From an uncultured Gammaproteobacteria bacterium (GTDB lineage Bacteria; Pseudomonadota; Gammaproteobacteria; SZUA-229): a stretch of DNA of 64,000 nucleotides. Positions 1-47,156 of this stretch are shown here, piece after piece; within the stretch, counting starts at the first letter, position 1, and each line of letters begins with the position of its first letter. The notes below the pieces were generated by a model that saw only the letters and a list, made by a program, of their open reading frames with translations, was not told the origin of the DNA and did no database searches. The stretch spans positions 2,258 through 66,257 of the forward strand of contig CAWECN010000013.1 of assembly GCA_963807625.1 (NCBI GenBank), in the 5' to 3' direction. A program made the position numbers and the translations under genes.

Positions 1-3000
1 GACTGGCAGGTCGGCCACCAGCAGATATCGAACTTCTTCGCCGACCGAAATATCCTGTGGTGAACTCGCCGGTGTGTTAGCCGTATCGACCGTCAGTTTG
101 GGCAGCGCGATGACCGGTATCATCTGCACGTTAGCAACCTGGTCTATCGTAGTATAGATACGTGCACGACCAGCATCATTCGGGAAGGCTGCCGTGTTAT
201 CTAGCTGTGGTGCGTTCTGATTACCAAAATTACCATCGAGACTGTCATACGACATGCTCACCGTATTTGTCAGTGTCTGTAACGGTGCGATGGTGATATC
301 TGGATCAACACGATAGTAAAAAGTTACTCTGTTCGCCGGACCCGGGTCGACCTGCAGTAACAGGGGATTGAAACTTTCGTCGACAGTAATAACTGCCGGT
401 GTACCATTGCCAATGATGTTGTCAGGTATGCTGGCAAAGAGCGCGGCTTCATCCGCTTCATCGATCAGTGTATCGCCATCGTTATCCAGACCATCGCTGG
501 AAAAATCAACGACTCCCATCAGATCGGATATATCCAGCGTATCGGTTGAAATAACATTGAAGGCCGGCGAACGAGCCGGCGTCGATGTCTGGTTCTCCAG
601 GGTGATCCGGTAGATGTAGGAGTCATTGGTATCGCCGTTACTGATGGTGTCAGCAAAGGTCGAACAGCCTGTTCCGAATCCGTTCAGGTCTTCATTACAT
701 ACTGTCTTAGTAACAATCAGGTTCGGTTCAACATCGGTCAGATCAACCCTGCGTCCCGTTTCTGCTGGATAACCGGGTGGAACAATATATCCGGCAGGAC
801 TGTTTACAGTGTCACTTACATCGATGTTGATCGGTGGTTGCGCCATACCGGCGATCGGCGCTGACTGAAACACAGCGGTAAATGATGTTTTGGCAATATT
901 GGTACTCGGGTTACCATGCAGATTAGGCGCATAGCCACCAGGCACCGGGTACGCCAGATCGACGGGGTCGTTTAACAGGCGTGTCTTAAAATCTACACGG
1001 AAGAACTCATCGGCAACGCCAATGCCACTAGCAGCATTAAAATTCCATGTTATATCCGTTTCAGAGAGAGGCGTTGTTCCAGCGCCGCCAGTTGCGCCGT
1101 TAAGTATAATGCCGCCGGTACTGGTAAAGTTATAAGGACTAGCGCCAAATGGAATAAATCCCTGGCCGTCAGGCAGGTCATCTACCACCGTAACATTCTG
1201 TACCTCGATCAGGGCAAAGCCCGGGGTTACAAAACCAAACCAGCCACCCGACTCAACACGGTAGTTACAATCTTCACCGATCTGTGAATTCAGGTTACCC
1301 GTCAATGGCGGTGTATTTGGCGGAGCAACTGCTGGCGTTAAGACATCTGCCGGTGCTGCAGGCTCCGGTAAATTATCTTCTGCACAGTACCATGCACTTT
1401 TTACCAGGTTAAAACCAAGCACCCTGGAACGGATCGCATCGAATGAATAATTGTTCGCCAGCTGCGCGACGTTTGGTGTTGTGTTCGATATCACCGGTGG
1501 TGCCGGGAAGGTCAATGCCGTACCATCAAACTGTGTGACTTCACCGAATACGTCTACACGGAATGTCAGGTCATCATCCACTGCGCCAGCTGCTTTTACA
1601 ACTGAAAAGGTGATGGTCTCTGTTGTGTTTGGTGCAATGACACCGCGATCACAGGCATATACCGCTGCCGATGCCGGAATGGCAGCAGGATCATCCCAGT
1701 GCGGATGTGGCGGCGGATTAGCAACCGGGCCAGAACAACCGGCAGGTAATGGTAGCTGAGCTGTCATCGCTTGACCAAGTGTCACATACGCCGTGTAATC
1801 ATCAGCATCATGACCACCGTTATTGGTCAGCAGCACGTTCAGGTTCAACGGGACACCAGGATCATTGGTCAGGATGAACAACGCATCTGAAATAGCAACA
1901 TCCAGGTCTTCCGGATCTGAACTGTAATTAAAAGGCTGATTACGGGTCTGTCCTTGCGGGCCGGTAGAATCAACAGCATCGAAATTAACCACCACGGTAT
2001 TCGTTAACGCCAATGCATTATCAGGATCTGTTAAAGGTGTTGTCTCTGGTGCCACATCGAGGTCGGCGACGAGGTCAAATCGTGATACTTCGATCATCAC
2101 GATACCAAAAGTGAATGAGATGATATCGCCATTACGCAACATGTCTCGTTGCTGCGGAAGATTTGCGCCAGTTGAAGTACTGGTCAATGTGAATGTCGGA
2201 TTTAAATCATCCAGTGGATCAGGGGTAGTCAATTCTGGATCATCACGGGTAAAAGTATCGATGAAACCCGGATAACCGCCATAGGCAGGTATCGTGGTAT
2301 TTGTCGGTTGACCAAATGGCTGACCGTTTTCCGGACCATAACTGTTATCCATCACATAACCGGCTGGCAGATTCGTCAAAACCGTTAACCCCTGTATCGA
2401 ACCGCCAGTCTGGTTTTCCAGCGTTATGGTCATCAGACCTTTACTGCCGAGCGGCTGCCCCGGGTTACTACCGGTTACTGTCTGCGTGATGACCAGTCCC
2501 GCTGGCACCACATCAGTACTAAGAGTGCCTGTTTCCAGTATCGTTACCCCTGGAGTAACACCGCCGGTCGATGCAGGCACTGTAATCGGACCACCAGCGG
2601 GTGAATTAACAGCACAACCCCAGGAGATATCAGCCGTGTTTACATTATTGGTATTTAAGTTAAGGATCCTGCCAACGTAATAGATAGAGACATTACTGCT
2701 GGCGGCAACATCATCAGGGTCCACGATATTTCCGAATGGATCTGCGACGTTATAGGAAGAGTTAAACGCTATACAGTTATTCCCGGGATTACCACCATTC
2801 GCAATAGCTGCGGCTTCGGCCTCGCCTTCCGTGGGACAGATATAGTTGATAGTAAAGTTACCATTGATCGAGTCATTCATCAGCAACGCTTCCATGTTTG
2901 CCAGACCTGCGTTAGCAACGTTTACCTGCCAGATGACATCATCATTGAAGCTGCCGTATACCGGGTCAGTGTAGGCTGAACCGATGGTTTGCCCGGCATC

Positions 3001-4437
3001 ATAGTTCCGTCCATCCTTTAATATGGTCGGTACCGGCTGACGGATAGGCAGTTCGAAATCGCCGGTAGCAACAGATTGCCTGGCTGCCAGACAGGACATA
3101 TCAAAATCGGCGCTGGCGTTAATATTCCTCACCGCCGCAATCAGGTTTTCAGCAACCGTGCTGCGAACACCAAAAGTGATAACGACATTTGCACCCGCCG
3201 CCAGGTTGGCCAGTTGCGGAACCTGTGCTGAGGTCCAGGTCAGCTGTGAACCGACTATACCCGGGTTACCGGGTGCTCCGGCTGGAACCGTGTTGATGGT
3301 AGTCGAATCATTAATATACTCCAGCCCGGATAACTGCAGATCTTCGACGATAGTAATATTGGTCATCGGTGCAGTTGTCGGGTTCTGTATGGTAAGGCTG
3401 ACTACACCATCACCACACAATTCACAGTAGCTGGTAGCAGCATGTGAAATAACGTTAGATAACGGGCCACTGGTAAACTGGAAGTCATACTGTACATTTA
3501 CCGGGCCAGCAGAATCTGTAGCAACACCTGTACGCTCACTCAGGCTGGCAGTGTTATCTAACACCGGGCAGGCGCTGGCTGGTGTTACCGTAGCATCGAC
3601 TGTCAGGTTTACGATCTCGCCAGCTGCGAGGTATTCAAAAGTATAATCATTCGCCCCAGGTCCGTTAGCACCCGGTGGCGGGTTCGGTACAATAAACGTT
3701 AAACCGTTGAGGTCTGCACTGAGGACATCATTCAACTGAACATCAAACAGACCACCACTGCCTGTCGAAGATACCGTGATGTTATAACTGATGACATCGC
3801 CCGTTATCACAGAAACAGTAGGCGTAGATTTGGTAATGCTTAGGCCGCCAGCATTTACATCAATATTCTGCGTAACTGGTGTGCTTGCAGCCGAACCGTT
3901 GTTACCATTGACTGTATTGTAGGTAACGTTATAACCCAGTGACTGTGTACCGGCGGCTGCACTGGTATTCGTCTCCAGACGGAATACATAGTTGTAAGTA
4001 CAACCCGGGTTAATGACGGTGCTGTTATTAGAGAATATATTGATGGTGACCGGCGTGCCAGCACCGCCACCCTGGCTAGCATTGGCATTCATATTGGGAC
4101 AGCTGCCACCGACATCGGTAACTGTTACTGACGTAGATGCCAGCGCGAAACCGGCAGGTACGGTTACCGGGATGTCGCGAATATCAAACGCCGGGTCTGG
4201 TCCGGTGTTGGTAACCGACAGAGTAAACCCGTCACCGGTATTAACTTCAGTCGCACCGTTCCATGTACCGCCGATATCCATGTAGGTACGTGCACCATCG
4301 GCAGGTGAAAAACTGGTTGATAAACCGATGTTTGGTAGGGCGAAAGCATTTTGCATCGGCCATAGCAAAACGCCGCCCACAAACAAACACTTTGCGAGCA
4401 GATTTCGATGACTAACTAGTTTTGCGATATCAAACAA
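1..4437 (-). CDS. Giant secreted repeat protein, partial (N-terminal >1470 aa in window; C-terminus lies beyond position 1). DUF11-type 'conserved repeat domain' adhesin-like surface protein.
   Basis: Manual translation of the minus strand gives one open frame from about 4437 to position 1 with no stop. It is absent from the ORF track because there is no in-window stop. The N-terminus looks like a signal peptide (FDIAKLVSHRNLLAKCLFVGGVLLWPMQNAFA/LP) if a non-ATG start (TTG at 4437) is used; the first in-frame ATG (about 4356) lies after the hydrophobic core. The body is Thr/Asn/Val/Gly/Pro/Asp-rich. It has repeated about 100-aa modules of the DUF11 pattern (e.g. LSITKSTPTVSVITGDVISYNITVSSTGSGGLFDVQLNDVL; VTKTVCNEDLNGFGTGCSTFADTISNGDTNDSYIYRITLENQTSTPARSPAFNVISTDTL). 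A Ca-binding-like DGLDNDGDTLIDEADE motif is encoded near 430-510. The + strand small ORFs 368-4285 in the track are antisense artefacts. Confidence 0.7.
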   Translation of the reverse strand, partial: MFDIAKLVSHRNLLAKCLFVGGVLLWPMQNAFALPNIGLSTSFSPADGARTYMDIGGTWNGATEVNTGDGFTLSVTNTGPDPAFDIRDIPVTVPAGFALASTSVTVTDVGGSCPNMNANASQGGGAGTPVTINIFSNNSTVINPGCTYNYVFRLETNTSAAAGTQSLGYNVTYNTVNGNNGSAASTPVTQNIDVNAGGLSITKSTPTVSVITGDVISYNITVSSTGSGGLFDVQLNDVLSADLNGLTFIVPNPPPGANGPGANDYTFEYLAAGEIVNLTVDATVTPASACPVLDNTASLSERTGVATDSAGPVNVQYDFQFTSGPLSNVISHAATSYCELCGDGVVSLTIQNPTTAPMTNITIVEDLQLSGLEYINDSTTINTVPAGAPGNPGIVGSQLTWTSAQVPQLANLAAGANVVITFGVRSTVAENLIAAVRNINASADFDMSCLAARQSVATGDFELPIRQPVPTILKDGRNYDAGQTIGSAYTDPVYGSFNDDVIWQVNVANAGLANMEALLMNDSINGNFTINYICPTEGEAEAAAIANGGNPGNNCIAFNSSYNVADPFGNIVDPDDVAASSNVSIYYVGRILNLNTNNVNTADISWGCAVNSPAGGPITVPASTGGVTPGVTILETGTLSTDVVPAGLVITQTVTGSNPGQPLGSKGLMTITLENQTGGSIQGLTVLTNLPAGYVMDNSYGPENGQPFGQPTNTTIPAYGGYPGFIDTFTRDDPELTTPDPLDDLNPTFTLTSTSTGANLPQQRDMLRNGDIISFTFGIVMIEVSRFDLVADLDVAPETTPLTDPDNALALTNTVVVNFDAVDSTGPQGQTRNQPFNYSSDPEDLDVAISDALFILTNDPGVPLNLNVLLTNNGGHDADDYTAYVTLGQAMTAQLPLPAGCSGPVANPPPHPHWDDPAAIPASAAVYACDRGVIAPNTTETITFSVVKAAGAVDDDLTFRVDVFGEVTQFDGTALTFPAPPVISNTTPNVAQLANNYSFDAIRSRVLGFNLVKSAWYCAEDNLPEPAAPADVLTPAVAPPNTPPLTGNLNSQIGEDCNYRVESGGWFGFVTPGFALIEVQNVTVVDDLPDGQGFIPFGASPYNFTSTGGIILNGATGGAGTTPLSETDITWNFNAASGIGVADEFFRVDFKTRLLNDPVDLAYPVPGGYAPNLHGNPSTNIAKTSFTAVFQSAPIAGMAQPPINIDVSDTVNSPAGYIVPPGYPAETGRRVDLTDVEPNLIVTKTVCNEDLNGFGTGCSTFADTISNGDTNDSYIYRITLENQTSTPARSPAFNVISTDTLDISDLMGVVDFSSDGLDNDGDTLIDEADEAALFASIPDNIIGNGTPAVITVDESFNPLLLQVDPGPANRVTFYYRVDPDITIAPLQTLTNTVSMSYDSLDGNFGNQNAPQLDNTAAFPNDAGRARIYTTIDQVANVQMIPVIALPKLTVDTANTPASSPQDISVGEEVRYLLVADLPV

Positions 4438-4704
4438 CGGCAAATACCAAAGTTATTACAACTAACTTTTAATTATTATTTATTTATATTTGGTAATTTG
4501 TATTTGATCGCATTTTGATAGTTTTATATGCCAAAAAAAAAGGATACCGTAGCCCGGCAGAACCCTGCATATGAAACATTTCTTTGAGTATAGTTACTAA
4601 GTTAAATTTCGCATTGAATATGTCGAAAATTGGACACTAAAAATTAATACTATTACGACACAAGAAAATACTTAGAGGATATAGCAAGTCAACTTCTTAC
4701 CAGC

Positions 4705-6057
4705 TTATGTAGCTGGTAAGAAATCGATTGGATACAGGATAGTAATAGCAGGTACGCCATCTTTGGCGCCAAAATTGAATTTTTTCACCCGGTCAGCAAT
4801 CTTCTTATCCAGCTCCGGTGCATCCATATCGCTGGAATCAACTGTACATGCTGATACTTTGCCATCGGGTTCGATAGTCAATCGCAATACCATCTTACCC
4901 TGCAAGGTTGGATTCTTACGCAACTCACGGTTATATATACGGTAGAGCGCAGATTTATAACGATCGAATACGATCTGGATCTCTTCATCGGTACGTGATG
5001 GACCCGGGCCGCTACTCAATGGCGCTTCTTCACCATAGAAATCACTGCCGATAGAACTCTCTACGCGGGAGAATTCGACACCACCCATACCATCACCCGA
5101 ACCACCTGTGTTACGACTCAGGGCAGCAGTATTGATGCCGCTGCTTGTTGTACCGACATTCGATGTCACCAGTGAGCGAGTCGTCTTCTTGGCCTTGCTG
5201 CCCTTACCGCTGATCTTGGCTTTCGAACCGAGGCTGGCGATCGGGGTGTCATCGATCAGGTCTGCGAAGTCATCCTTAAATGCCATCAGGCCGGCACGCT
5301 CAGCTTTCTTACGCGCTTTTTTAGCTTCAGGCACAGGTTTATCGTCTTTCTTCTTGGCCTTTTCTTTATCCGGTTTTTTCTCTTCCTGTTTTTCCTGCTT
5401 TGGTGGCGGAGGTGGTGGTGGTTTAGGCGCCATCAATTTCGCTAAACGTTCTGGTATTTCCACCACTTCTACACGGTCAGGTACAGGGATATCCCACATC
5501 GGTATTAGAAGACCTAGCAAGATGGAGAATAATAAAACGATCAGTAATATTTTTCTAAACTGTTTCTGATCACGATCATTTCTGTTCCATGGCATCTGCA
5601 TCGGGCGATATGGTAGTTCAACCATTTCACGCTCAATGACAAATTCTTCAAGACGCGCTTCTTCACGCTCCTGCAAGGCCAGGCTTTCATCATTTAAAAG
5701 ATTTATTTTTGCAGTAAGACTTTCGACAGTTTCGTAACGTTCACTCTGCTGGCCCTGTAATTCAGCAACTCTCGAGTCATAATTAACAACCAGGTCACGA
5801 ACACGTTTCTGCTGTTTAGAAGCGTTATCCTGGTCATAATTTTCGCCCCAGAATAAATCAGAACCGCCCAGTTTCTCCAATTTCTCCAGCTGATCACTGA
5901 TTTCACTAAGAACGGCAAAACGTTGACGCCTAGTTTTAAGCTCTTTTAATTCATCTGAAACACCGACATCTTCATTTTCAAGTGCGTTCAGACGAGTATA
6001 GGCTTCATCAATCTTACGATTGATCTCTTCCTGTTCTTGTGAAATTTCGTCAAACAC
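4705..6057 (-). CDS. TonB C-terminal-domain protein with a long cytoplasmic coiled-coil N-terminus, one TM helix and a proline-rich spacer (GltG/AgmX-like architecture).
   Basis: 450 aa. About 170 aa of charged coiled coil, then TM helix ILLIVLLFSILLGLLIPMW, then a PPPPPPP + KEK-rich spacer, a Ser/Gly/Thr linker, and a C-terminal TonB-C-like fold (IQIVFDRYKSALYRIY...GKMVLRLTIEPDGKV...ITILYPIDF). It lies immediately downstream of ExbB/ExbD genes in the same operon. Confidence 0.7.
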   Translation of the reverse strand: MFDEISQEQEEINRKIDEAYTRLNALENEDVGVSDELKELKTRRQRFAVLSEISDQLEKLEKLGGSDLFWGENYDQDNASKQQKRVRDLVVNYDSRVAELQGQQSERYETVESLTAKINLLNDESLALQEREEARLEEFVIEREMVELPYRPMQMPWNRNDRDQKQFRKILLIVLLFSILLGLLIPMWDIPVPDRVEVVEIPERLAKLMAPKPPPPPPPKQEKQEEKKPDKEKAKKKDDKPVPEAKKARKKAERAGLMAFKDDFADLIDDTPIASLGSKAKISGKGSKAKKTTRSLVTSNVGTTSSGINTAALSRNTGGSGDGMGGVEFSRVESSIGSDFYGEEAPLSSGPGPSRTDEEIQIVFDRYKSALYRIYNRELRKNPTLQGKMVLRLTIEPDGKVSACTVDSSDMDAPELDKKIADRVKKFNFGAKDGVPAITILYPIDFLPAT

Positions 6058-6075
6058 TGGAATCTACGTCAGCCT

Positions 6076-6579
6076 TTACTGTTTACTTTTTGCTTTTTGA
6101 ACAACTGCCAGGGAAATCTTTCCATAACCGGCACTGGTACAACTCGACATCACTTTTTTCATTAGATGGAATGGTACCGTTCGATGCGCCAGCACAGTCA
6201 CCTCGTTACTTTTTGCCACTGATTTAGTGCTGATGCCGATAACTTTTTTCTTCTGTAAAAGTAATCGCTGTTTTACCGGCTCGATAATAGCCGTTTTGCT
6301 ATCAATCACTTCCTGCGTGGTGATCACGGGCTCGCCCTGAACCAGTATCTGGTCCGGAGTAATCATGATAATAACTGTTTCACGCGGTTTAGCTTCAACC
6401 GTAGAGTCAGGTAATTTAATTCTTTTCGGTGGTTCCATGACATCGCTGGATGATGAATTCACCAACAGGAAAAATACCAGGATGGTAAATACATCCATCA
6501 ATGAGACCAGGTTTAAACCAGTAGCAGCTGAACCCTTGCTACTGCGCGACATGCGCTTGATGCGACGGCTTTGACTCAT
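6076..6579 (-). CDS. ExbD/TolR family biopolymer transport protein (AglS/AglQ-like)
   Basis: 167 aa. Single N-terminal TM helix (LNLVSLMDVFTILVFFLLV) plus a periplasmic domain typical of ExbD/TolR. Its ATGA start overlaps the stop of the upstream ExbD gene. Confidence 0.8.
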   Translation of the reverse strand: MSQSRRIKRMSRSSKGSAATGLNLVSLMDVFTILVFFLLVNSSSSDVMEPPKRIKLPDSTVEAKPRETVIIMITPDQILVQGEPVITTQEVIDSKTAIIEPVKQRLLLQKKKVIGISTKSVAKSNEVTVLAHRTVPFHLMKKVMSSCTSAGYGKISLAVVQKAKSKQ

Positions 6580-7133
6580 GGTGCGTCGCCTATAGAAATA
6601 TCAGGAAACAGAACGACCTGCTGCAGCACATCTGCTTCACCATCCGCACCCGGCTGACGAACAAATGTTGCTCGTACAGCATCCATAATTCTGATTAACG
6701 CACGATATTCAATGTCCGGTTCCATTAATACAACCGCATCTGTTTTATCCGGATATTTACCTTTTATTTTTACCAGGTATTCAGAAAGCAGTTCCATGTC
6801 ATATAGTTTAGTGACATCGAAGTCACCCTCTTCGTCAACACTGAGTGGGACATCCTCTTCTTTTAGCAACGGAAAACGGGCCAGTACCTGTTTACCATTA
6901 CCAATCTCCAGGCCTTTCTGTCGAACGATAACCTCTATACTAAGTTGCGGCTTTTTACTGTCAGCGGAACCATCACCCGCAGGCAAACTTAACTCAAGAA
7001 TGGTAATTCTTGAGAACACAGCAGTTATCAGCAGGAACGGAACAAGCACAACCATCAAGTTAAGGAAGGTTGTAATATTAAGTTCAGCCGGCTCCTTCTG
7101 CAGCCGCTTGTAATGGTGTCTTCGTCTAGCCAT
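6576..7133 (-). CDS. ExbD/TolR family protein (second copy)
   Basis: Single TM helix (ITTFLNLMVVLVPFLLITAVF) plus an ExbD-like periplasmic domain. The likely start is MARRRHHY (ATG at 7133) rather than the track start at 7175. It overlaps the exbB-like stop by a few nt, which suggests translational coupling. Confidence 0.75.
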   Translation of the reverse strand: MARRRHHYKRLQKEPAELNITTFLNLMVVLVPFLLITAVFSRITILELSLPAGDGSADSKKPQLSIEVIVRQKGLEIGNGKQVLARFPLLKEEDVPLSVDEEGDFDVTKLYDMELLSEYLVKIKGKYPDKTDAVVLMEPDIEYRALIRIMDAVRATFVRQPGADGEADVLQQVVLFPDISIGDAP

Positions 7134-7794
7134 TCTTCGCAGCCAGTGCCGCTTGACGTTTTGCGAAATCAGCAATCAGGTTTAATGTTTTCACTGATGC
7201 CATCTCAAGACTATCAATAATCTCCGTTGTTTTAGAAGAAATTATTGCGTGAACAATTAACAGAGGGATAGCTGCCATCAGACCAAAAGCTGTAGTATTC
7301 ATAGCTACCGAAATACTTGCAGAAAGCAAATCCGCTTTTTCAGCAGGGTCTGCATTAGCTACCGCAGTAAAAGCTTCAATGAGGCCCATAATCGTACCTA
7401 GCAGACCAAGCAATGTGCAGATATTTGCAAACAGTGCAATAAATGGTGTGCGTTTTTCCAATTGAGGAATAATCTCCATCATACTTTCTTCCATGGCGAT
7501 CTCGATATCATCGCGGCGACGAACCGAACCTTGTCTTGCCAGCCCCATGTTCAACAAACGGGCGATAGCTGATTTATCTTCAGAAATGGAGTCACGTGCC
7601 GAATCAAATTCACCTTCTTCAAGTAAAGGGTGCACAGTGTCCCAGACTCCTTTATTTGTCTTGCCCACACCCGACAATTTGATATATCGCTCAATACATA
7701 TCGCTACACCAAAAGAAAATATTATTAATATCGGGTACATAAACGTACCACCGGTTTGGAAAAATTGCACAATAGTCAGGATAGTATCCATCAT
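7126..7794 (-). CDS. MotA/TolQ/ExbB proton-channel family protein (AglR-like)
   Basis: 222 aa with three TM helices in TolQ/ExbB topology (YPILIIFSFGVAICIERY; FIALFANICTLLGLLGTIMGLIEAF; AMNTTAFGLMAAIPLLIVHAII). Confidence 0.85.
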   Translation of the reverse strand: MMDTILTIVQFFQTGGTFMYPILIIFSFGVAICIERYIKLSGVGKTNKGVWDTVHPLLEEGEFDSARDSISEDKSAIARLLNMGLARQGSVRRRDDIEIAMEESMMEIIPQLEKRTPFIALFANICTLLGLLGTIMGLIEAFTAVANADPAEKADLLSASISVAMNTTAFGLMAAIPLLIVHAIISSKTTEIIDSLEMASVKTLNLIADFAKRQAALAAKNG

Positions 7795-7818
7795 GTACTC
7801 CTCATTTTAAATCGCTTG

Positions 7819-8127
7819 TTATTGTACGTTCTTACCATGACTCAACTCGTAAAAATCAAGTTCACGTAAAAACACTTCTTTGTCTACAGGGCGCATACTG
7901 TCATCTAACAGTCCTGAATTTAAACTTGTAGCCACACCTACTTCAGAATTTTGCCAGGGTACGATATAAAGTGACTTAGGCGCCTCTTTATTACCGATGA
8001 TTGAAATACCTGATAACTCTTTTACTTCAGTATCTGCTTTTTTTTCTTCGGCAAAAACATTCTGTAACATTGATACCTGTATCACCAGGTAATACAAAAC
8101 TGTATTGATTATAGTTTTAATTTTCAT
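7819..8127 (-). CDS. Small secreted/periplasmic protein (about 100 aa) of unknown function; GltF-like by position
   Basis: The ORF gives a signal-peptide-like N-terminus if started at MKIKTIINTVLYYLVIQVSMLQNVFA (aa 15 of the track ORF). It is wedged between the TPR lipoprotein gene and the exbB-like gene on the same strand. Confidence 0.45.
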   Translation of the reverse strand: MKIKTIINTVLYYLVIQVSMLQNVFAEEKKADTEVKELSGISIIGNKEAPKSLYIVPWQNSEVGVATSLNSGLLDDSMRPVDKEVFLRELDFYELSHGKNVQ

Positions 8128-8207
8128 AATGTCATCACCTTGTGCAATTATTATCAGCCAAGAATACAAAAAACCATCACGTAAATATTTTTCTTAATGG
8201 TTATAAT

Positions 8208-8810
8208 TTATTTTCCCAGGCGCCGCTTTACATCAACGACCCAGATAGCCACGGTCTTATCACCCGGTTCCAATTCCAGGTAAACCTCGAACTGCTGCAG
8301 CGCACACTCATAATCATGCATATACAGATCGCATAAAACACCCAGGTTTCTTATCGCTGGCAGGTATTCGGGGTGTTCTTTGATAGCATTCTCATATGCC
8401 GTTCTCGCCGCCTTGAACTTGCCGGACTTTCTATAAAGCAGACCCAGTTCATTATTTGCCACCGGGTGTCCGATATCCAGCTTTAACGCGCTGATCAGGT
8501 TTTCTTCTGCTGCCTTGGTATCACCTAACCTGTTATAAGCGATCGCGATATTCACATAAGGTGCCGGCAGACGTTTCTCTCGTTCGATAACTGATTTTAA
8601 AACGGATACCGCCTGTGCATTTTTTTCTTCCTGCATCAGGACGATAGCTCCCTTAAAATCGTCCTCCACATCCGAGTCTATATCCAGGTGGCGAGTCGTT
8701 TTCTTTTCATAACTGACGACTGTATCCTCTCTAACATCGCCGCCACCAGCGCAGGAAAACAAGCTTAACGACACGATAAAAACTGATAGATATTTCGAGA
8801 CCTTCATCAT
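8208..8810 (-). CDS. TPR-repeat lipoprotein (about 200 aa)
   Basis: Lipobox LSLFSCAGG follows MMKVSKYLSVFIVS, so the likely start is the internal Met and the track start at 8852 is too long. TPR-like helical repeats are present (AAEENLISALKLDIGHPVANNELGLLYRKSGKFKAARTAYENAIKEHPEY...). Confidence 0.65.
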   Translation of the reverse strand: MMKVSKYLSVFIVSLSLFSCAGGGDVREDTVVSYEKKTTRHLDIDSDVEDDFKGAIVLMQEEKNAQAVSVLKSVIEREKRLPAPYVNIAIAYNRLGDTKAAEENLISALKLDIGHPVANNELGLLYRKSGKFKAARTAYENAIKEHPEYLPAIRNLGVLCDLYMHDYECALQQFEVYLELEPGDKTVAIWVVDVKRRLGK

Positions 8811-8844
8811 ATTTCTACTACCTGTCATAGTCATGCCGTACATA

Positions 8845-11800
8845 TCAACCACCGACCGCTGCCTGTTCAGTAACAGCTTTCTTATTATCTATTTCATTTT
8901 TTTCTTTAGTATTCTCTTTATCTTTTCTATCTTTTACCTGTGGCCCCGGCTGAATCAGGGTGATGATCGCGCTACCCTTTTCTGTCTTGGCATATCGCGC
9001 AGGTAATAGCACAGCCAGCTTGGCAATACTCTTATCGATCCACTCGTTATAGATACCTACATCGAGAAGCTCCATATTCTTCTCATGAACATTGATGGCT
9101 TTTTCTTCAAACGGGTAAACCTGCTCTTCGATCACCAGCTCATATTGCTCCAGTTCTTCATCACCCAGATTCGCCGGCCTCTCAGATTCGAGTAATGCCA
9201 CACTAAACTCGTAGTAGATCTCAGCGATAAAGAAAGTAGCTGCTGCCGTAACTTCACCAACCTGGTACTCGACCAGTTTCGTATAAGTGTCGATAGCCGT
9301 ACGCATACGCTGCTTTTTCTTCTTCAGGTTTTTCTTGAACGGCTTGACGAGCGCAACTTTTTTAAATTCCTCAAGCTTTGGTTCAGCCAGTACCAGTGAA
9401 GCCTTGGCGGCAAGGAACCTGGTTCGGTCGGTCCTGCCGTTACCCGCTACTGCATCTCCAGCTACGATCTGTTTTAACTGGAAAACATACTGTTTACGCT
9501 CACCTTTCTCCAGGTATATGTCAGCCATTTTCTGACGTGCCTCGATGGCACCTTCGATCGGCACAGGGAAATAATCAACTATCTTGGTATACACGAGCAG
9601 CGCTTTGCTCTTCTCACCTGCTTTCACATATAACTCGGCCGCCTGGTTTAACGCTTCACGCCTTAGCGCCTTATCATCCGGATTCTGTTTTTCGATGCGC
9701 TCAAACTCGACAGCAGACTTAAGGAATTTCCCATCTTCTTTATAGACCACCGCAAGCTTCTTAGTTATATCCTTGTTCAGTTTATTGTCTGGATAAAGTT
9801 TCCTGAATCCTTCGAGTACGGTAGCGACTGCCCCCCATTGTTTTAACAACATGAGCGACGCGGCTGCATCATACTCTGCGGTCGGCCTGATCTTCGAATT
9901 TGGAGCAACCTTTGCAACACGTAGGAAATGCTCGGCAGCAACTTTATGGTCACCCAGCTTACGCGCCTGCTCACCCTGCTTGTATACAGAAGCAGCAAGG
10001 TTTTCTGTCAACGAATTATAACTCTTGTCCTTTTTATCGGTCAGTGCCAGTGTCTGCACGTATGCATCTTCGGCTTCTTTATAGTTCGCTATATCAAACG
10101 AGGCATGCGCCACGACCATCCATGAAGAGCGCAAAAGCTTCTTGTCAGCATTCGGATACACCTTGATGACCCGGCGGCCATAGGTGATCGCCTGCTCATA
10201 ATCTTCCAGTGCATACATATCATCGACCGCTGCCACCAGTACTACCGCTGCATGTTTATGCGTTGGAAAATAATCAGTAAACTTCAACGAGCTACGGATG
10301 ATCTCACGCTTGATTATATTGCGCTGTGACTGATTGGCGACTTTCAGGTGTTCGCGATAAGCATAGACCGCAGCATAACCGGCACTCGCCGAATCTTCAT
10401 GTGTAAGATAGTTATAGGCAGTACGTTCGTATTCAGTCGCTGCACCAAGATAATCTTTATGTTCAAGCAACAGTCCGGCTAACTGGTTGTTAAGTTTAGG
10501 TGCCTGCTTCTCTTCCGGGAACGAAGACAGGTATTCGCGGTACCAGAATATCGCCTCCTGGTAATTTTCTTCTTTCTGTTTCACCAGGCGTCTATCCTGG
10601 TACAAAGCATGATAGTGGTTTGCCAGGTCAATGAGGTTTGATTTTAAGAATGCCAGCACGGTCGGATTGGCATTGATATCAAAGAATGTCCAGTAGTTTG
10701 AATTCAGGGCATATGTCTTAGAGAATTCTTTCTTGGCATCGACAACCAGGCGAGGAAAACCACCCTTCTTATAGATCTCGATCACGCGGATATTAAAGTA
10801 TGGTGACTCCTTTGAGATCGGATTCCTGCCGATGTAGGTCTCGTAAGATTTAGCAGCATCAGAGTAGCGGCGTTTCGTCAGGTAGTACTCGCCAAGGTGA
10901 CTATAGATACTCGCCTCGTAAAAGCGGTGCCCGTGTTTATCAAAAAATTCAACGATCGAGTCAGCGCCACCGAGGTATGAGAAACTGAGACTGATCACAC
11001 GGTATGTGTCATCGATGCGTTTTTTCTCGATCTTGTTTTCTATACTATCGAGGTCATATCCGTTATCGACCTTGTAATCAAGCATCCTGATATAGTCGCG
11101 CAATGCTTCCTCATATAGATCCTGTTTAAAGTATGCCCAGCCCTGTTTATACAATGCCAGCTCATAAAACTCAGAACCCACACCGGCATCGATCACAGCC
11201 TGGTAAGACTCTTCGGAATCCAGATACTTCTTACGTGTGAAAAAATACTCTGCTCGACGGAACTGTGCCTCATCGATGTGTCTAGACTGCGGGTACTGAC
11301 TGATCAATTGCTCCAGGGTTTGCATCGCCACTTCTATCTGCCCGGTCTCTTCATAGGCTCGGGACAACTGGTAGAGCACCTGATCATTACGCTCGAACAA
11401 AGGATATTTCTTTAACAGGCCTTTATACAACTCGATAGCTTCTTTGGCACCCGCTGTCTGCAGATCATCAGCATCACCCGGTTTCTGCCCGGGGACATCG
11501 ATCTTTTTCTTCTTGGGTTTGCCCAAATCGATCTTCTTGCCTGCACGCTCACTGAACTCTTTCTCGCTCTCACTAATGTCGGCGATCGGGCTACCTTTTG
11601 CAGTAACACTTTCTTTCTCTTCACCTGCAGCAACAGGCACGAAACTGGTATCAGGTGTACTTATATCTGTCGCCTGAGAGGCACTATCAGCAACCGGTGT
11701 CACTTCTTTGGCATCAGGTATATCTCCAGTTGCCTGTTTGACCTGCTCTGCCTGCTCTTGAGCACGGGCAACATCTTCAACCTCATACTCTTTTTGAATC

Positions 11801-12048
11801 TTCAGATCGGCAAGCCGGCGTAGCGCTTCCGGCGTCATCTCTGTCTCAGGTGTTTCCTTGAGAAACTTCTCATAACTGGCCATCGCCTTCTCAAGGCTAC
11901 CGTCAACTTTTTCCTGCTTCAACTCGAACTTGACGTCGCTCAAACTGCCAAGCGTGCCTTCGTTATTCGTAGTCGCACAGGAGATCAACAACATCGATGC
12001 TGTTATCAGTGCCGGTAGTGAGAAGTTATCAAGTCGCATCATCTTCAA
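8845..12048 (-). CDS. Large TPR-repeat lipoprotein (1067 aa), GltD/GltE-like by context
   Basis: N-terminal lipoprotein signal (SMLLISCATTNNEG). An acidic, low-complexity region is followed by more than 15 TPR-like repeats over about 800 aa, and the C-terminus is Lys/Glu-rich. It is co-directional and tightly packed with the neighbouring genes. Confidence 0.75.
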   Translation of the reverse strand: MKMMRLDNFSLPALITASMLLISCATTNNEGTLGSLSDVKFELKQEKVDGSLEKAMASYEKFLKETPETEMTPEALRRLADLKIQKEYEVEDVARAQEQAEQVKQATGDIPDAKEVTPVADSASQATDISTPDTSFVPVAAGEEKESVTAKGSPIADISESEKEFSERAGKKIDLGKPKKKKIDVPGQKPGDADDLQTAGAKEAIELYKGLLKKYPLFERNDQVLYQLSRAYEETGQIEVAMQTLEQLISQYPQSRHIDEAQFRRAEYFFTRKKYLDSEESYQAVIDAGVGSEFYELALYKQGWAYFKQDLYEEALRDYIRMLDYKVDNGYDLDSIENKIEKKRIDDTYRVISLSFSYLGGADSIVEFFDKHGHRFYEASIYSHLGEYYLTKRRYSDAAKSYETYIGRNPISKESPYFNIRVIEIYKKGGFPRLVVDAKKEFSKTYALNSNYWTFFDINANPTVLAFLKSNLIDLANHYHALYQDRRLVKQKEENYQEAIFWYREYLSSFPEEKQAPKLNNQLAGLLLEHKDYLGAATEYERTAYNYLTHEDSASAGYAAVYAYREHLKVANQSQRNIIKREIIRSSLKFTDYFPTHKHAAVVLVAAVDDMYALEDYEQAITYGRRVIKVYPNADKKLLRSSWMVVAHASFDIANYKEAEDAYVQTLALTDKKDKSYNSLTENLAASVYKQGEQARKLGDHKVAAEHFLRVAKVAPNSKIRPTAEYDAAASLMLLKQWGAVATVLEGFRKLYPDNKLNKDITKKLAVVYKEDGKFLKSAVEFERIEKQNPDDKALRREALNQAAELYVKAGEKSKALLVYTKIVDYFPVPIEGAIEARQKMADIYLEKGERKQYVFQLKQIVAGDAVAGNGRTDRTRFLAAKASLVLAEPKLEEFKKVALVKPFKKNLKKKKQRMRTAIDTYTKLVEYQVGEVTAAATFFIAEIYYEFSVALLESERPANLGDEELEQYELVIEEQVYPFEEKAINVHEKNMELLDVGIYNEWIDKSIAKLAVLLPARYAKTEKGSAIITLIQPGPQVKDRKDKENTKEKNEIDNKKAVTEQAAVGG

Positions 12049-12049
12049 C

Positions 12050-14161
12050 CTATCGACCTAACAACTGTTGCTTGAAGGATGACGAGCCAGTAGCCTCATC
12101 ATTTTCCACTTCGGAATCAACCTGTGGTTTTTCCTCTATCACTTCCCTTGTCTCGACCGGTTTCTCTTCTGTAACCTCGGGTTGTTTATCGACATTCTCA
12201 GGTACACCACCGCTCTGTTTAGCGATCTCGGCCTCCAGTTGTGCTTTTGTTGCACGGTCATAACTTTCGGCCAGCGCGAAACGTGCCTTTATCTGGTACT
12301 CTTCCAGGCGTTTCCTGCGACGGTCGAGTTCATTGACGGCCATGGTTTCCAGCAGACGACCCTGTTTCGCCATAACACCTTTGAGCGTTCTCTGTGCGGT
12401 GAACAGGCGCGTTCTCAACTGGCGGATTGGAATGGTGTAACCTTCATAACTCTGTGTCGCTGCCTGCCTTGTTCGTATAAAGGAGTTGTATGTTATCTTC
12501 AGCTGCTTGATGATCTCGTCTAGTGAGATCAGATTATTATATGCATCGGTGAGGCGCTGATCATATTCGCTACGCACCTGCCATGTCACGATACCGCGTA
12601 TCCGCTTAACACGCAGCTGCACATCCTGGCTCACCTGTGAAGAATTGATCGCAATCTTTTCTTCCAGCGCTGCGATGACATCCAGCGCCTGGCGCTCGGT
12701 CGATGTCGCCAGGTATTCAGGGCGCGGTGCGATCAGCATATTTTTCAGCTTTGTCGCAAGGTTCTCCCGCTGTTCCAGGCGTAGCTTAATCCTGGCGTCC
12801 AGTTTAATAAATTTCTTTTCTACGACCGGCAGTAGCGGTTCCTGGTAAGCGCGTCTTATCTCGATCATCTCTTCATAGACCCTTAGATCCTCCAGCCATT
12901 TATCGATATGGTGGCGTAGTTCAGCCAGGTCTTTGTAATTTTTGTACGACTCCTGAAAATCATGTGACGCCATCAGCTCCAGGATGTAACGCGTTTCTGG
13001 TGTGTCAGGCAGCTCTCGTAAATTAACCACCCAGTTTTTATCCTTGCTTGATTTCTCATCGAGTAAAGCAGTAAGAAACTTGCCTTTACGGATCGTTTTG
13101 ATGGAATCATCCAGGCTGCCGATCTCTTCTGCGAAAACGTCCATCGCATGGCTATAAAGATTGGCGGCATTACCGTGAGCATTTAATTTTCCGTAAGCAT
13201 ACGGAACGGCCATCAATACTTCCTGTACAGAGTAATTAGTTTCAGCACGTTTATGAAGCATCGACCATGGTACCAGCGCACGGTCAAACTGACCCTCGGC
13301 AACAGCGACCCAACCTGCACCGAGCAGAGCCCGGTTTGAATATGGCCCGTCGAGACGGACACGTTCAAAATATATCTTTGCCTTTTTTGCATTGGCTTTA
13401 TCGAGATAATAATAAGCCAGTTTGATATTCGTCTTGTCCTTTAGTGTAAGCAGGCCGTTATCACTGAACTCCATTTTCCCGAGTTCGTCAAGTACACGCA
13501 GACCTTCCTTCTCATTACCGCTCTGGATCAAGGCGATACCCAGGTTATATATGACATAACCTTTGAGTATCTTCTCTCCTTTCAGCCCCTGTAAGATATC
13601 GACTGCCTGGGTAAACTGTCCGGTATCGATACTCGCTAATGCCTTCAGGTAAGCGACATCTGTCTTAAATGTTTCAGGTTCTTTACCGCGCAATACATCG
13701 AGTGAATATTTTTCCTGGTAGCGTGATCTATCCGGCTCATCACGGATAAGCTCAAGCGCATACAGGGTGCTCGCAGGATCATTCTTCTTATAGAAAACCC
13801 TTGCCAGGGCGAGGGCCGCCTGATTACGTATCGCAAGATCGATGCCTTCACCCAGCACTGCCTGTATCGCACGGCCAGCACGCTGGTTCATGCGGTATTG
13901 CATCTCCAGCTCACCGACCGAGAACTCGGCCTGTGTCAGATGACTGTGAAAGGGATCGAGACCGGATTCATCCAGTTCATAATATTGCGACAACTCTGTA
14001 TCGAGCCGTGCCAGTGCATCGAAGTGCAGGTCCTGGTATGCGTAATACAGGACTTCGCCGAAATACAGGTCTCGCAATTCGACATCCTTCAGGCCGCTCG
14101 CCGCATATAGCGAAGAGCTGCATAAGAAAACAGAGAAGATAAGGGTAAAACGGAGCAACAT
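12050..14161 (-). CDS. Secreted TPR-like helical-repeat protein (703 aa) with a C-terminal coiled coil
   Basis: Signal peptide MLLRFTLIFSVFLCSSSLYAASG. TPR-like repeats, then a long coiled-coil C-terminal third (RRKRLEEYQIKARFALAESYDRATKAQLEAEIAKQ...). Its stop abuts the start of the 1067-aa gene. Confidence 0.6.
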   Translation of the reverse strand: MLLRFTLIFSVFLCSSSLYAASGLKDVELRDLYFGEVLYYAYQDLHFDALARLDTELSQYYELDESGLDPFHSHLTQAEFSVGELEMQYRMNQRAGRAIQAVLGEGIDLAIRNQAALALARVFYKKNDPASTLYALELIRDEPDRSRYQEKYSLDVLRGKEPETFKTDVAYLKALASIDTGQFTQAVDILQGLKGEKILKGYVIYNLGIALIQSGNEKEGLRVLDELGKMEFSDNGLLTLKDKTNIKLAYYYLDKANAKKAKIYFERVRLDGPYSNRALLGAGWVAVAEGQFDRALVPWSMLHKRAETNYSVQEVLMAVPYAYGKLNAHGNAANLYSHAMDVFAEEIGSLDDSIKTIRKGKFLTALLDEKSSKDKNWVVNLRELPDTPETRYILELMASHDFQESYKNYKDLAELRHHIDKWLEDLRVYEEMIEIRRAYQEPLLPVVEKKFIKLDARIKLRLEQRENLATKLKNMLIAPRPEYLATSTERQALDVIAALEEKIAINSSQVSQDVQLRVKRIRGIVTWQVRSEYDQRLTDAYNNLISLDEIIKQLKITYNSFIRTRQAATQSYEGYTIPIRQLRTRLFTAQRTLKGVMAKQGRLLETMAVNELDRRRKRLEEYQIKARFALAESYDRATKAQLEAEIAKQSGGVPENVDKQPEVTEEKPVETREVIEEKPQVDSEVENDEATGSSSFKQQLLGR

Positions 14162-14163
14162 GT

Positions 14164-14703
14164 TTACCAGTCTTTAAAAGAGATCGTTTGATCAGATGAA
14201 CTGCTGCCTGATATCTGTATCTCTACAAACTTGGGCCCGACAGCTTTTGTTACTGTAAAATTTTCACTGCGTTGATATTCATTACCGGATTTTGATCGAC
14301 CGATAAAACTGGCAACCAGCTGATGATCTCCGGTTTTTATATTACCGGTATAAATGCGCTGCACACCACCCGCCCTCAATGCCTCGATCTCTTTGTAGGT
14401 ATAGAGGTGATGCGCTACGACCTTGTTATCCATCTTGATCTGCACAGAATCCAGTACGAAACCTTCATCGCCTGCGACCGAGACGAACAGTGATACCTGG
14501 GTATTAGAGGGAAATAATAATTTTTCTTCCAGTCGTGACAGTTCCGAGGTCAGATCCAGCACATCTTTTTTGATATCCTGCACCTGCTCATCGAGCCCCT
14601 TGATCTGTTCCTGGGTGACTTCAGCCGCATGCAATGATAATGGAACAGTGTTTATTAATAACAAAACTGGAACAAAAAATCTGGCGAATAAATTTTTCAG
14701 CAT
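14164..14703 (-). CDS. Periplasmic protein (179 aa) with a signal peptide and an N-terminal coiled coil; first gene of the operon
   Basis: Signal peptide MLKNLFARFFVPVLLLINTVPLSLHAA, then a coiled coil (IKGLDEQVQDIKKDVLDLTSELSRLEEKL) and a beta-rich C-terminus. A 260-bp AT-rich promoter region lies upstream, divergent from dgkA. Confidence 0.5.
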   Translation of the reverse strand: MLKNLFARFFVPVLLLINTVPLSLHAAEVTQEQIKGLDEQVQDIKKDVLDLTSELSRLEEKLLFPSNTQVSLFVSVAGDEGFVLDSVQIKMDNKVVAHHLYTYKEIEALRAGGVQRIYTGNIKTGDHQLVASFIGRSKSGNEYQRSENFTVTKAVGPKFVEIQISGSSSSDQTISFKDW

Positions 14704-45024: not shown

Positions 45025-47130
<2,106 letters not shown>

Positions 47131-47156
47131 TTATCGATTAATCATGAAGGCGTTTT

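Follow-up and report, generated by a model that had tools for sequence, protein, structure and literature searches.

A giant DUF11/CLIPPER-type secreted protein and its conserved neighbors beside an Agl/Glt-like core operon in an uncultured gammaproteobacterium

Introduction

The first 4,437 nucleotides of a 64,000-nucleotide stretch of DNA from an uncultured Gammaproteobacteria bacterium of the SZUA-229 lineage (GenBank assembly GCA_963807625.1, contig CAWECN010000013.1, positions 2,258 to 66,257 of the forward strand; the whole stretch is called the window below) are filled by a minus-strand reading frame that runs off the left edge and lies directly downstream of an operon for TonB-, ExbD-, ExbB- and tetratricopeptide repeat (TPR)-type proteins. 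What does this gene encode, and does it work together with the operon beside it? By comparison with orthologs, positions 1-4437 would encode the N-terminal third of a giant protein of approximately 4,700 amino acids (aa) in the closest complete orthologs. We consider it probable, at roughly 0.6, that this is a Sec-exported fibrillar surface protein whose C-terminus is held in an outer-membrane β-barrel and which is serviced by a proton-driven core complex.

For the operon, the literature offers a counterpart. The core complex formed by aglRQS with gltC, gltD, gltE and gltG occurs in Gamma- and Betaproteobacteria, Geobacter and Fibrobacter (PMC3169522), and that study tabulates Cellvibrio, Hahella, Marinobacter, Saccharophagus, Shewanella frigidimarina and Teredinibacter among its carriers. 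It is widespread in the two proteobacterial classes and is regarded as the evolutionary root of both the Agl-Glt machinery of Myxococcus gliding and the Nfs machinery of spore-coat assembly. Papers from 2011 (PMC3169522), 2013 and 2020 treat it as standing alone and its function as unknown, with a basal role in transport or secretion as one suggestion.

Results

The first 4.4 kb of the window belong to a functional gene

On the minus strand, the frame running from position 4437 to position 1 comprises 1,479 sense codons without a stop, for which the random expectation is approximately 1e-31, and is still open at the left edge. In a codon comparison with three orthologs, the ratio of nonsynonymous to synonymous substitutions (dN/dS) was 0.088 (L003), 0.10 (L066) and 0.136 (L001; L- and P-numbers designate loci and proteins, respectively), with dS near 1, and the amino acid identity of the window-encoded part to L003 and L066 was 85%. 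This purifying selection and the open frame show that the gene is functional, and a pseudogene reading was rejected. The frame is absent from the open reading frame (ORF) list because the listing omits ORFs that run off the source sequence, a mechanical artefact with nothing biological behind it. The window-encoded part is rich in threonine (10.3%), alanine (9.7%), glycine (9.1%), valine (8.6%) and asparagine (8.6%) and strongly acidic, with 10.1% of aspartate plus glutamate versus 2.9% of lysine plus arginine, and it contains only 11 lysines (0.7% of residues). An earlier reading of this DNA, made from its letters alone (the sequence-only reading), had proposed a single uninterrupted frame over the first 4.4 kb and a Thr/Asn/Val/Gly-rich product; the codon comparison and the composition agree with both proposals.

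Complete orthologs reach several thousand residues and share a C-terminal domain

Full ortholog lengths range from 3,074 to 4,700 aa. Complete orthologs measure 3,074 to 3,694 aa, the longest of these coming from the cultured Microbulbifer donghaiensis. Two close relatives, P0001 (78% identity) and P0002 (73%), apparently end near residue 2,350, and their frames resume past frameshifts located at 17092-18245 in L001 and at approximately 7480 and 11440 in L002. Because these frameshifts differ in position between the contigs, we consider the two ends as assembly errors; with the frameshifts bridged, the L001 protein reaches approximately 4,700 aa. Public assemblies call the orthologous giant genes as 2-5 separate proteins, and word-based homolog searches returned 10 proteins and then 11 with the conserved core, mostly fragments. 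This fragmentation explains why only about 10-20 giant homologs were recovered by word-based search versus more than 2,200 for the product of the next gene (see below), and the small number limited the alignment depth of the first structure model.

The C-terminal two-thirds, which lie outside the window and were read from the orthologs, carry several CLIPPER (Pfam PF01345, formerly DUF11), DUF7507 (CLIPPER_2), DUF7619 and SdrD_B (CnaB-like) domains. Together with the ortholog lengths, these domains uphold the proposal of a giant DUF11-type secreted protein. Tandem CLIPPER repeats occur only in this off-window part, with five stretches in L001 and L051. The complete orthologs end in a conserved region of approximately 230 aa, consisting of a CnaB-like domain followed by a domain that ends in ...LRLSYL...CCYEL.IE.E(I/V)FWR(R/K)G.P, and this region aligns across 22 loci. 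Against Pfam, the ortholog C-termini matched only DUF11 and SdrD_B, with no match to the type I secretion RTX, type IX secretion system (T9SS) C-terminal or autotransporter models; the LPXTG motif was not searched for.

The giant gene and the upstream operon are linked across several phyla

With the giant protein as seed, a scan of genomes yielded 61 loci. Their hosts include Gammaproteobacteria (many of the loci coming from metagenome-assembled genomes (MAGs) of Thiotrichaceae, others from Woeseiaceae, Thiohalomonadaceae and a cultured Microbulbifer), Betaproteobacteria, Desulfobacterales, Myxococcota, Spirochaetaceae, Fibrobacteraceae and others. In approximately 45 of the 61 loci, from several phyla, the giant gene follows the complete nine-gene cluster found upstream in the window and is co-oriented with it; in four, the cluster is divergent. 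In most fetched loci that extend far enough, the same 11-gene arrangement recurs, with the core operon, the giant gene and a gene for an OmpA/barrel protein. A metagenome scan seeded with the TonB-like gene yielded at least 582 relatives; 34 loci extended 2.5 kb or more downstream. Eighteen of these 34 loci encode the same N-terminal core of the giant protein. In most of the others that were examined, the large secreted protein (1,316 to approximately 3,300 aa) is a different one that has the same C-terminal domain and is followed by an OmpA/barrel gene. The functional linkage to the upstream operon that the sequence-only reading had suspected is thus backed by synteny from both directions, and the adjacency itself is confirmed, the giant gene lying 268 bp downstream of the TonB_C/ExbD/ExbD/ExbB/TPR genes. 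The linkage between core operon and giant gene is strong yet not obligatory in cis. Taken together, these loci suggest a cargo-tag system in which a conserved core and barrel are combined with several cargo families marked by the C-terminal domain; the window protein is a member of the main cargo family.

Among the alternative cargoes, those of L107, L114, L121, L141 and L144 have 1,316-3,208 aa, lack the N-terminal core of the window protein and carry the same C-terminal domain of approximately 230 aa.

The next gene encodes a predicted outer-membrane barrel that is fused to the giant protein in four loci

In the orthologous loci, the next gene and the stop codon of the giant gene overlap. 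The product of this next gene (P0011) has approximately 1,740 aa and contains three OmpA domains behind a signal peptide. Its homologs number more than 2,256, are very uniform in length (about 1,700-1,750 aa) and are annotated only as "OmpA family" or "MotB". An AlphaFold2 model of residues 601-1740 built from 41 sequences had a mean predicted local distance difference test score (pLDDT) of 59.3, with 65-90 in its best part, and contained approximately 34 long antiparallel strands, the strand count and the barrel size both being approximate. The top Foldseek matches were LptD, Deinococcus SlpA, TonB-dependent transporters and MtrB. The model and its matches indicate that this region is probably a very large outer-membrane β-barrel. 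The operon ends after the barrel gene, because the genes further downstream differ between L064 and L065.

In four high-GC loci of Deltaproteobacteria/Myxococcota type (L047, L058, L118 and L120), the giant protein and its OmpA/barrel partner are fused in frame. The junction lies approximately 30 aa past the FWR.G motif, with no stop codon and no signal peptide, and consists of a Pro/Gly-rich linker, past which the fused proteins continue with a region homologous to the mature OmpA partner. These in-frame fusions argue strongly that the giant protein and the barrel protein form one physical unit. They also imply that the giant protein has its C-terminus close to the cell, so that the part encoded in the window would be the distal end.

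The upstream operon matches the Agl/Glt core complex

The nine-gene operon (4705-14703, minus strand) is transcribed towards the giant gene and was annotated with Pfam, NCBIfam, signal peptides or lipoboxes, and gene order. In the order of transcription, it encodes a secreted protein of 179 aa (p179, 14164-14703), with a signal peptide; a GltC-like secreted protein of 703 aa (p703, 12050-14161), assigned from its order and size; a GltD-like TPR lipoprotein of 1,067 aa (8845-12048), from Pfam and a lipobox; a GltE-like TPR lipoprotein of 214 aa (8208-8852), from Pfam and a weak match to the GltE equivalog model; a small secreted protein with a signal peptide (7819-8169); an ExbB/AglR-like protein (7126-7794) and two ExbD/AglQS-like proteins (6576-7175 and 6076-6579), all from Pfam; and a GltG-like TonB_C protein (4705-6057), from Pfam and NF033768. 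The last protein scored 68.8 bits (cutoff 40) with NF033768, the AgmX/PglI (GltJ/GltG) C-terminal model. The cutoffs of the Myxococcus xanthus equivalogs were not reached, with 58 versus 650 bits for GltG and 31 versus 225 bits for GltE, as expected for non-myxobacterial homologs. The GltD-like protein additionally gave a weak match to PorW/SprE (E 1.9e-6). The order of the operon and the sizes of its proteins are those of the core complex in Table S3 of Luciano 2011, including an extra small gene: GltC, GltD, GltE, extra gene, AglR, AglQ, AglS, GltG (PMC3169522). The operon thereby matches the ancestral Agl/Glt core complex in gene content, order and sizes, and by this analogy would be one of its representatives.

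The first gene, p179, had no Pfam or NCBIfam match. It is conserved in nearly all loci that reach far enough upstream, and it is absent among the core-complex entries consulted in Luciano Table S3.

The window-encoded part combines one CLIPPER domain with divergent Ig-like modules

The gathering threshold of PF01345 is 24.6 bits, and this threshold was passed only at aa 199-303 (3529-3843, minus strand, as for all features of this gene), with 36.3 bits when the whole protein was scanned and 38.7 bits for the isolated segment aa 199-304; NCBIfam TIGR01451 agreed (25.5 versus a cutoff of 24). In a piecewise Pfam scan, aa 34-198 and aa 641-830 gave sub-threshold DUF11 scores (17.1 and 13.2 bits), and four other segments had no match. 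The N-terminal module, aa 34-198 (3844-4338), is therefore called DUF11-like below its cutoff; it is confined to the closer relatives, as tblastn with aa 1-320 matched closer loci only. No tandem repeat was found at the DNA level in the window part.

CLIPPER domains have a CnaA-like fold with an Asp-catalyzed Lys-Asn isopeptide bond, formed by K715, D748 and N806 in 9IFR (PMC12617251). The candidate triad in the window protein, K203/D237/N295, is nearly invariant in the homolog alignment A1, and its spacing of 34/92 is close to the 33/91 of 9IFR. With these residues present, an isopeptide K203-N295 aided by D237 may stabilize the module. Of 44 diverse orthologs, 40-44 retain each of five further lysines (K474, K948, K1013, K1244 and K1447), which mostly stand in short β-strand-like motifs such as IVTK and NLVK. 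Invariant cysteines form the apparent pairs 338/341, 901/929, 1018/1057 and 1247/1258, with additional ones at 534, 555 and 608. The near absence of lysine, set against these conserved lysines and paired cysteines, points to an exported protein with disulfides and probably several isopeptides: the other conserved lysines are likely sites of additional isopeptides, and the conserved disulfide pairs would stabilize the modules. PMC12617251 reports disulfides co-occurring with isopeptide domains in 58% of Pseudomonadota cases.

Residues 326-700 (2338-3462) form a family-specific core that is conserved to Beta- and Deltaproteobacteria, Myxococcota and other phyla. It contains an invariant CxxC (aa 338-341, nucleotides 3415-3426), the likewise invariant K474, C534 and C608, and an NDDVIW motif, and it had no Pfam match. 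This core is rare, with 108 clusters in an exhaustive HMMER search of 1.84 billion representatives. We consider this conserved N-terminal core as a candidate ligand-binding domain.

An AlphaFold2 model of aa 301-1100 (1138-3537) built from 22 sequences had a mean pLDDT of 68.6 and a predicted template modeling score of 0.59, and was nearly all β-strand. Foldseek matched it to integrin leg domains, the C123 region of streptococcal antigen I/II, pilins and the macroglobulin domains of alpha-2-macroglobulin; the scores were low, as expected for flexible multi-domain chains, and the matches were used for the fold class only. A search against the sequences of PDB chains with the whole protein, the CLIPPER domain and the calcium-module profile described below gave no significant match and did not retrieve 9IFR. 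Overall, the model and the profile matches are consistent with a string of divergent Ig-like β-sandwich modules that includes one bona fide CLIPPER domain. Tandem DUF11 modules of about 100 aa had been expected in this part: one PF01345 domain stood, and the remainder scored below threshold or not at all. The expected β-rich character held, as nearly all of the part is predicted strand; the modules, with boundaries set by eye, are divergent, span approximately 105-225 aa and are no literal repeats.

A universally conserved module contains a calcium-type loop

Alignments of 44 and 25 orthologs delimited a universally conserved module at aa 1236-1420 (178-732), in which the columns of K, C, D and N vary little or not at all. 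It starts at K1244 (44 of 44 orthologs), beside the C1247-C1258 pair, and holds an acidic loop; D1299 and N1391 are proposed as isopeptide partners from the alignment. The module had no Pfam match. Its acidic motif DGLDNDGDTLIDEADE, which contains DGLDNDGD (aa 1315-1330, 448-495), includes a 12-residue DxDxDG calcium-type loop, DNDGDTLIDEAD (aa 1318-1329, nucleotides 451-486). The loop is present in 44 of 44 orthologs with the family consensus DGLDNDGDGLIDAAD. The consensus DNDGDGLIDAAD fits a 12-residue loop with acidic residues at positions 1, 3, 5, 9 and 12, glycine at 6 and a hydrophobic residue at 8; in DNDGD(G/T)LID(A/E)AD, positions 1, 3, 5 and 9 are aspartate, position 8 is hydrophobic and position 12 acidic, and position 6 is threonine instead of glycine in the clade of the window. 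Hence the resemblance to a calcium site noted from the letters alone extends to the whole family.

Matches to known models were faint. NF033662 matched faintly at the acidic motif, the TSP_3 and EF-hand Pfam models gave no match at E<=1, and the best PDB match of the module profile was weak (E=0.8), with GDGIDNDGNGYIDD of the S8 protease deseasin (3vv3). Such DxDxDG loops are calcium sites in subtilases. The window loop shares the acidic/hydrophobic pattern of the EF-hand-like, thrombospondin type 3 and subtilase-insertion loops and differs in being a single copy inside an Ig-like module, not a repeat array. From this conserved pattern, it is reasonable to expect that the loop binds calcium.

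Translation probably starts at a TTG codon followed by a signal peptide

An in-frame TAA lies at 4455-4453, leaving TTG 4443 (4441-4443) and TTG 4437 (4435-4437) as candidate starts; the first in-frame ATG is codon 28. The TTG aligned with position 4437 is common to five close orthologs (L001, L002, L003, L004 and L007), in which the ORF opens one or two codons past an in-frame stop, and it stands immediately before 'FD(I/V/F)AK' in the window, L003, L004 and L007. Six distant orthologs (L013, L018, L020, L008, L011 and L060) have an ATG in the equivalent position. This comparison supports TTG 4437 as the probable translation start. With a start at codon 28, the positively charged n-region and the hydrophobic h-region of the signal peptide would be lost.

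The putative Sec-type signal peptide (aa 1-33, 4339-4437) was judged by inspection of its n-, h- and c-regions, from hydropathy and from its design in orthologs. It has an n-region with K6, R11 and K16, an h-region CLFVGGVLLWP and a predicted AxA cleavage site, NAFA|LP, with a hydropathy maximum of 2.0 over aa 13-25; the orthologs compared also have a basic n-region, a hydrophobic core and an AxA site. The non-ATG start with a signal peptide, suspected in the sequence-only reading, thereby gained comparative support.

Between the TonB_C gene and the giant gene lies an AT-rich spacer of 268 bp (4438-4704), which we analyzed with an alignment of seven orthologous spacers and a terminator scan. 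Conserved non-coding blocks were found at approximately 4582-4624 and at 4438-4470 (minus strand), comprising GACATATTCAATGC...ACTTAGTAACTATACTCAA, CAAATGCGATCAAA and a GGTATT before the TTG; the synonymous sites of the flanking genes are near saturation. The GGTATT block, 6-13 nucleotides upstream of the TTG, is invariant in the seven spacers and may be a weak ribosome-binding site, and the conserved blocks are probably a promoter or operator of the giant gene. At 4545-4559, past the first block and ahead of the start codon, the terminator scan detected a hairpin with a T-run that resembles a terminator. Conserved block, hairpin and spacer length together suggest that the giant gene is under its own regulation. 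A structured RNA leader was also considered for the spacer and rejected, as no Rfam match was found and the consensus fold of the aligned orthologous spacers was weak (RNAalifold -2.4 kcal/mol, with little covariation).

Discussion

A proposed barrel-held surface fiber serviced by a proton-driven core

According to the reading that we favor, the giant protein would be exported by Sec, its signal peptide being cut after NAFA, and the mature protein would fold into a long string of Ig-like β-sandwich modules. The off-window remainder, as read from the orthologs, would form a CLIPPER/CnaB stalk ending in the C-terminal domain of approximately 230 aa, and this end would be held in or beside the very large outer-membrane barrel encoded by the next gene, itself tied to peptidoglycan through its three OmpA domains. 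The window-encoded part would then be the cell-distal, probably ligand-binding end. By analogy with the modeled Agl-Glt machinery, the GltC-like protein may dock the barrel protein onto a periplasmic scaffold of GltD/E/G-like proteins. The ExbB/ExbD motor, the TonB-like GltG and the TPR proteins would couple proton-motive force across the periplasm to the barrel-fiber unit, and this force could serve the export or mounting of the fiber, its insertion or retention in the barrel, its exposure or retraction, or traction.

A wider claim is that the core complex is the proton-powered engine of an unrecognized system that exports, mounts and/or operates a giant fiber, recognized by its C-terminal domain, through an OmpA-tethered barrel. 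We put this forward tentatively, as a possibility on the doubtful side of even. If true, Proteobacteria would have in this system their counterpart of T9SS/SprB, or else a two-partner autotransporter assisted by a motor, and the gliding and spore-coat machines of Myxococcus would be derivatives with swapped cargo.

Several points weigh against the favored reading. Four Desulfobacterales-type loci (L045, L046, L050 and L053) encode the giant protein with no core operon within 10 kb upstream, and four core-seeded loci (L100, L111, L122 and L134) have unrelated downstream genes. The 3' end of the gene lies beyond the window, and the C-terminal domain and partner are taken from orthologs with 75-86% identity. 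Because the hairpin and the conserved non-coding blocks intervene, co-transcription of the core operon and the giant gene is not assured. Just one window module passes the CLIPPER model, both AlphaFold2 models are of moderate confidence (pLDDT 68.6 and 59.3) with Foldseek template modeling scores of 0.15-0.3, and the Pfam and NCBIfam scans detected no recognizable adhesive (ligand-binding) domain. We infer localization, isopeptides, calcium binding and dependence on proton-motive force from sequences and models only, and to call the giant protein an adhesin is likewise a deduction.

An alternative is a giant protein that stays in the envelope or cell coat, as a periplasmic tether, a sheath or a surface layer-like element on the OmpA/barrel protein, which the core would assemble or remodel in the manner of Agl-Nfs. 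The partner has three peptidoglycan-binding OmpA domains and its fold matches SlpA, a tether between outer membrane and peptidoglycan; Agl-Nfs is a documented use of a Glt-like machine in coat assembly and not in motility; and the Pfam scans detected no adhesive domain. However, approximately 30-40 tandem Ig-like domains would far exceed the width of the periplasm, and CLIPPER/CnaB domains, disulfides and a calcium loop are typical of extracellular stalks (PMC12617251). The fusions of cargo, linker, OmpA domains and barrel are also topologically simplest with the cargo outside the cell, and we regard a coat or tether function as unlikely.

Slightly less probable again is that the giant protein acts as the traction adhesin of a gliding-type machine, whose motor would move the barrel-fiber unit as in the focal adhesions of Myxococcus. 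The position of the core complex at the evolutionary root of Agl-Glt speaks for such a machine, as does the layout of motor, periplasmic TPR transducer, outer-membrane barrel and adhesin, which parallels the Glt-CglB model. Many of the loci come from MAGs of Thiotrichaceae, a family that includes gliding filaments. Nevertheless, three OmpA domains would fix the barrel on peptidoglycan, and none of the Group A genes that gliding requires (gltA, B, F, H-K) turned up in the cluster.

Two further explanations are already contradicted and retain very little probability. That a stand-alone DUF11 surface protein lies by coincidence beside the ExbB/ExbD/TonB/TPR operon could appeal to the 268-bp spacer with its hairpin and to the many contexts in which DUF11 proteins are common (PMC12617251), but it fails on the gene order conserved in approximately 45 giant-seeded loci across phyla, on the large protein with the same C-terminal domain in most core-seeded loci with enough downstream sequence, on the four fusions of cargo and partner, on the rarity of the family-specific core among the representatives searched, and on the more than 100 independent contigs, for which assembly chimeras are implausible. 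Membership in a known secretion class is suggested by size, acidic composition and a calcium-type motif for type I (RTX/LapA/BapA-like) adhesins, by a conserved C-terminal domain with a proton-driven motor for T9SS substrates, and by the fused forms for classical autotransporters, but it is opposed by the N-terminal Sec signal peptide, by the missing HemolysinCabind/RTX, T9SS C-terminal domain and Autotransporter Pfam matches in complete orthologs or C-termini, by the absence from the conserved cluster of genes for ATP-binding cassette, membrane fusion and TolC proteins, and by a barrel whose approximately 34 predicted strands far exceed the 12 of a classical autotransporter.

Relation to known systems

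The class of CLIPPER fibrillar adhesins and the core complex are each already known. The window protein resembles the CLIPPER adhesins (9IFR, Acinetobacter silvestris; Costa et al., Protein Sci 2025, PMC12617251) in the K/D/N triad spacing, in its great length, signal peptide, conserved disulfides and Gram-negative host and, through its orthologs, in the tandem CLIPPER, CLIPPER_2, DUF7619 and SdrD_B stalk domains. It differs from them in that most of the window part is not recognizable as CLIPPER and has the rare CxxC/NDDVIW core instead, and in its C-terminal domain of approximately 230 aa, which matches no known sorting signal. The OmpA/barrel partner and the Glt-like core found here are not mentioned in the passages of PMC12617251 consulted. 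The Agl/Glt core complex was published as stand-alone, whereas here it is flanked by p179, the giant protein and the OmpA/barrel protein.

The focal-adhesion module of M. xanthus (the GltA/B/H barrels, GltK, CglB and GltC) follows the same logic from motor to transducer to barrel to adhesin. In M. xanthus, CglB is a von Willebrand factor A-type lipoprotein and the barrels are three small porin-like ones; here, the corresponding elements are an Ig-like fiber of several thousand residues and one huge barrel with three OmpA domains. No homologs of GltA/B/H/K or CglB were seen in the cluster with the Pfam and NCBIfam scans. The T9SS gliding adhesins, with SprB, the SprA translocon and GldLM, share with the window system a giant Ig-repeat adhesin with a Sec signal and a C-terminal domain, a large barrel, a proton motor and TPR lipoproteins; in contrast, the T9SS C-terminal domain models do not match here, the motor is of ExbB/ExbD type and the host phyla differ. 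With respect to the autotransporters and inverse autotransporters (type V), fiber and barrel form one polypeptide only in four loci and are separate genes in the lineage of the window, approximately 1,000 residues of OmpA and Ig-like domains stand between linker and barrel, the barrel far exceeds a size of 12-16 strands, and no Autotransporter Pfam match was obtained. A 'protein inside barrel' arrangement is known from MtrAB, and MtrB was among the Foldseek matches to the barrel.

A literature search of incomplete coverage returned no paper that links a DUF11/CLIPPER giant protein, an OmpA/barrel protein and a Glt core, nor any account of the C-terminal domain, of the barrel partner or of the fusions. 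Taken alone, the window gene would be one more giant CLIPPER-type surface protein, and it is the context that gives it weight. The near-constant giant and barrel neighbors, the natural fusions and the shared C-terminal domain offer a testable answer to what the ancestral motor acts on, and a possible new pathway for the surface display of very large proteins in Gram-negative bacteria. The family is easily missed, its genes being badly fragmented in public protein sets, and a cultured Microbulbifer carries the locus.

Other genes in the window

A gene for a HAMP-GGDEF-EAL protein lies at 25642-27729 (minus strand), approximately 11 kb from the operon, and L064 has, past the locus, a gene for a large hybrid sensor kinase that includes a GGDEF domain. 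Cyclic diguanylate signaling often controls large adhesins. A thiC gene (Radical SAM ThiC, E 1e-184) was found at 45025-47013 on the minus strand; in its upstream region (47014-47156), no thiamine pyrophosphate riboswitch was detected at the gathering threshold or at a permissive E-value, the only match being a chance-level one to algC RNA (E 0.53). On the plus strand, an ORF of 618 aa at 30802-32658 had no Pfam match at E<=1e-5, and a protein of 599 aa at 38655-40454 contains a C1 peptidase domain of the papain family, a type uncommon among bacteria.

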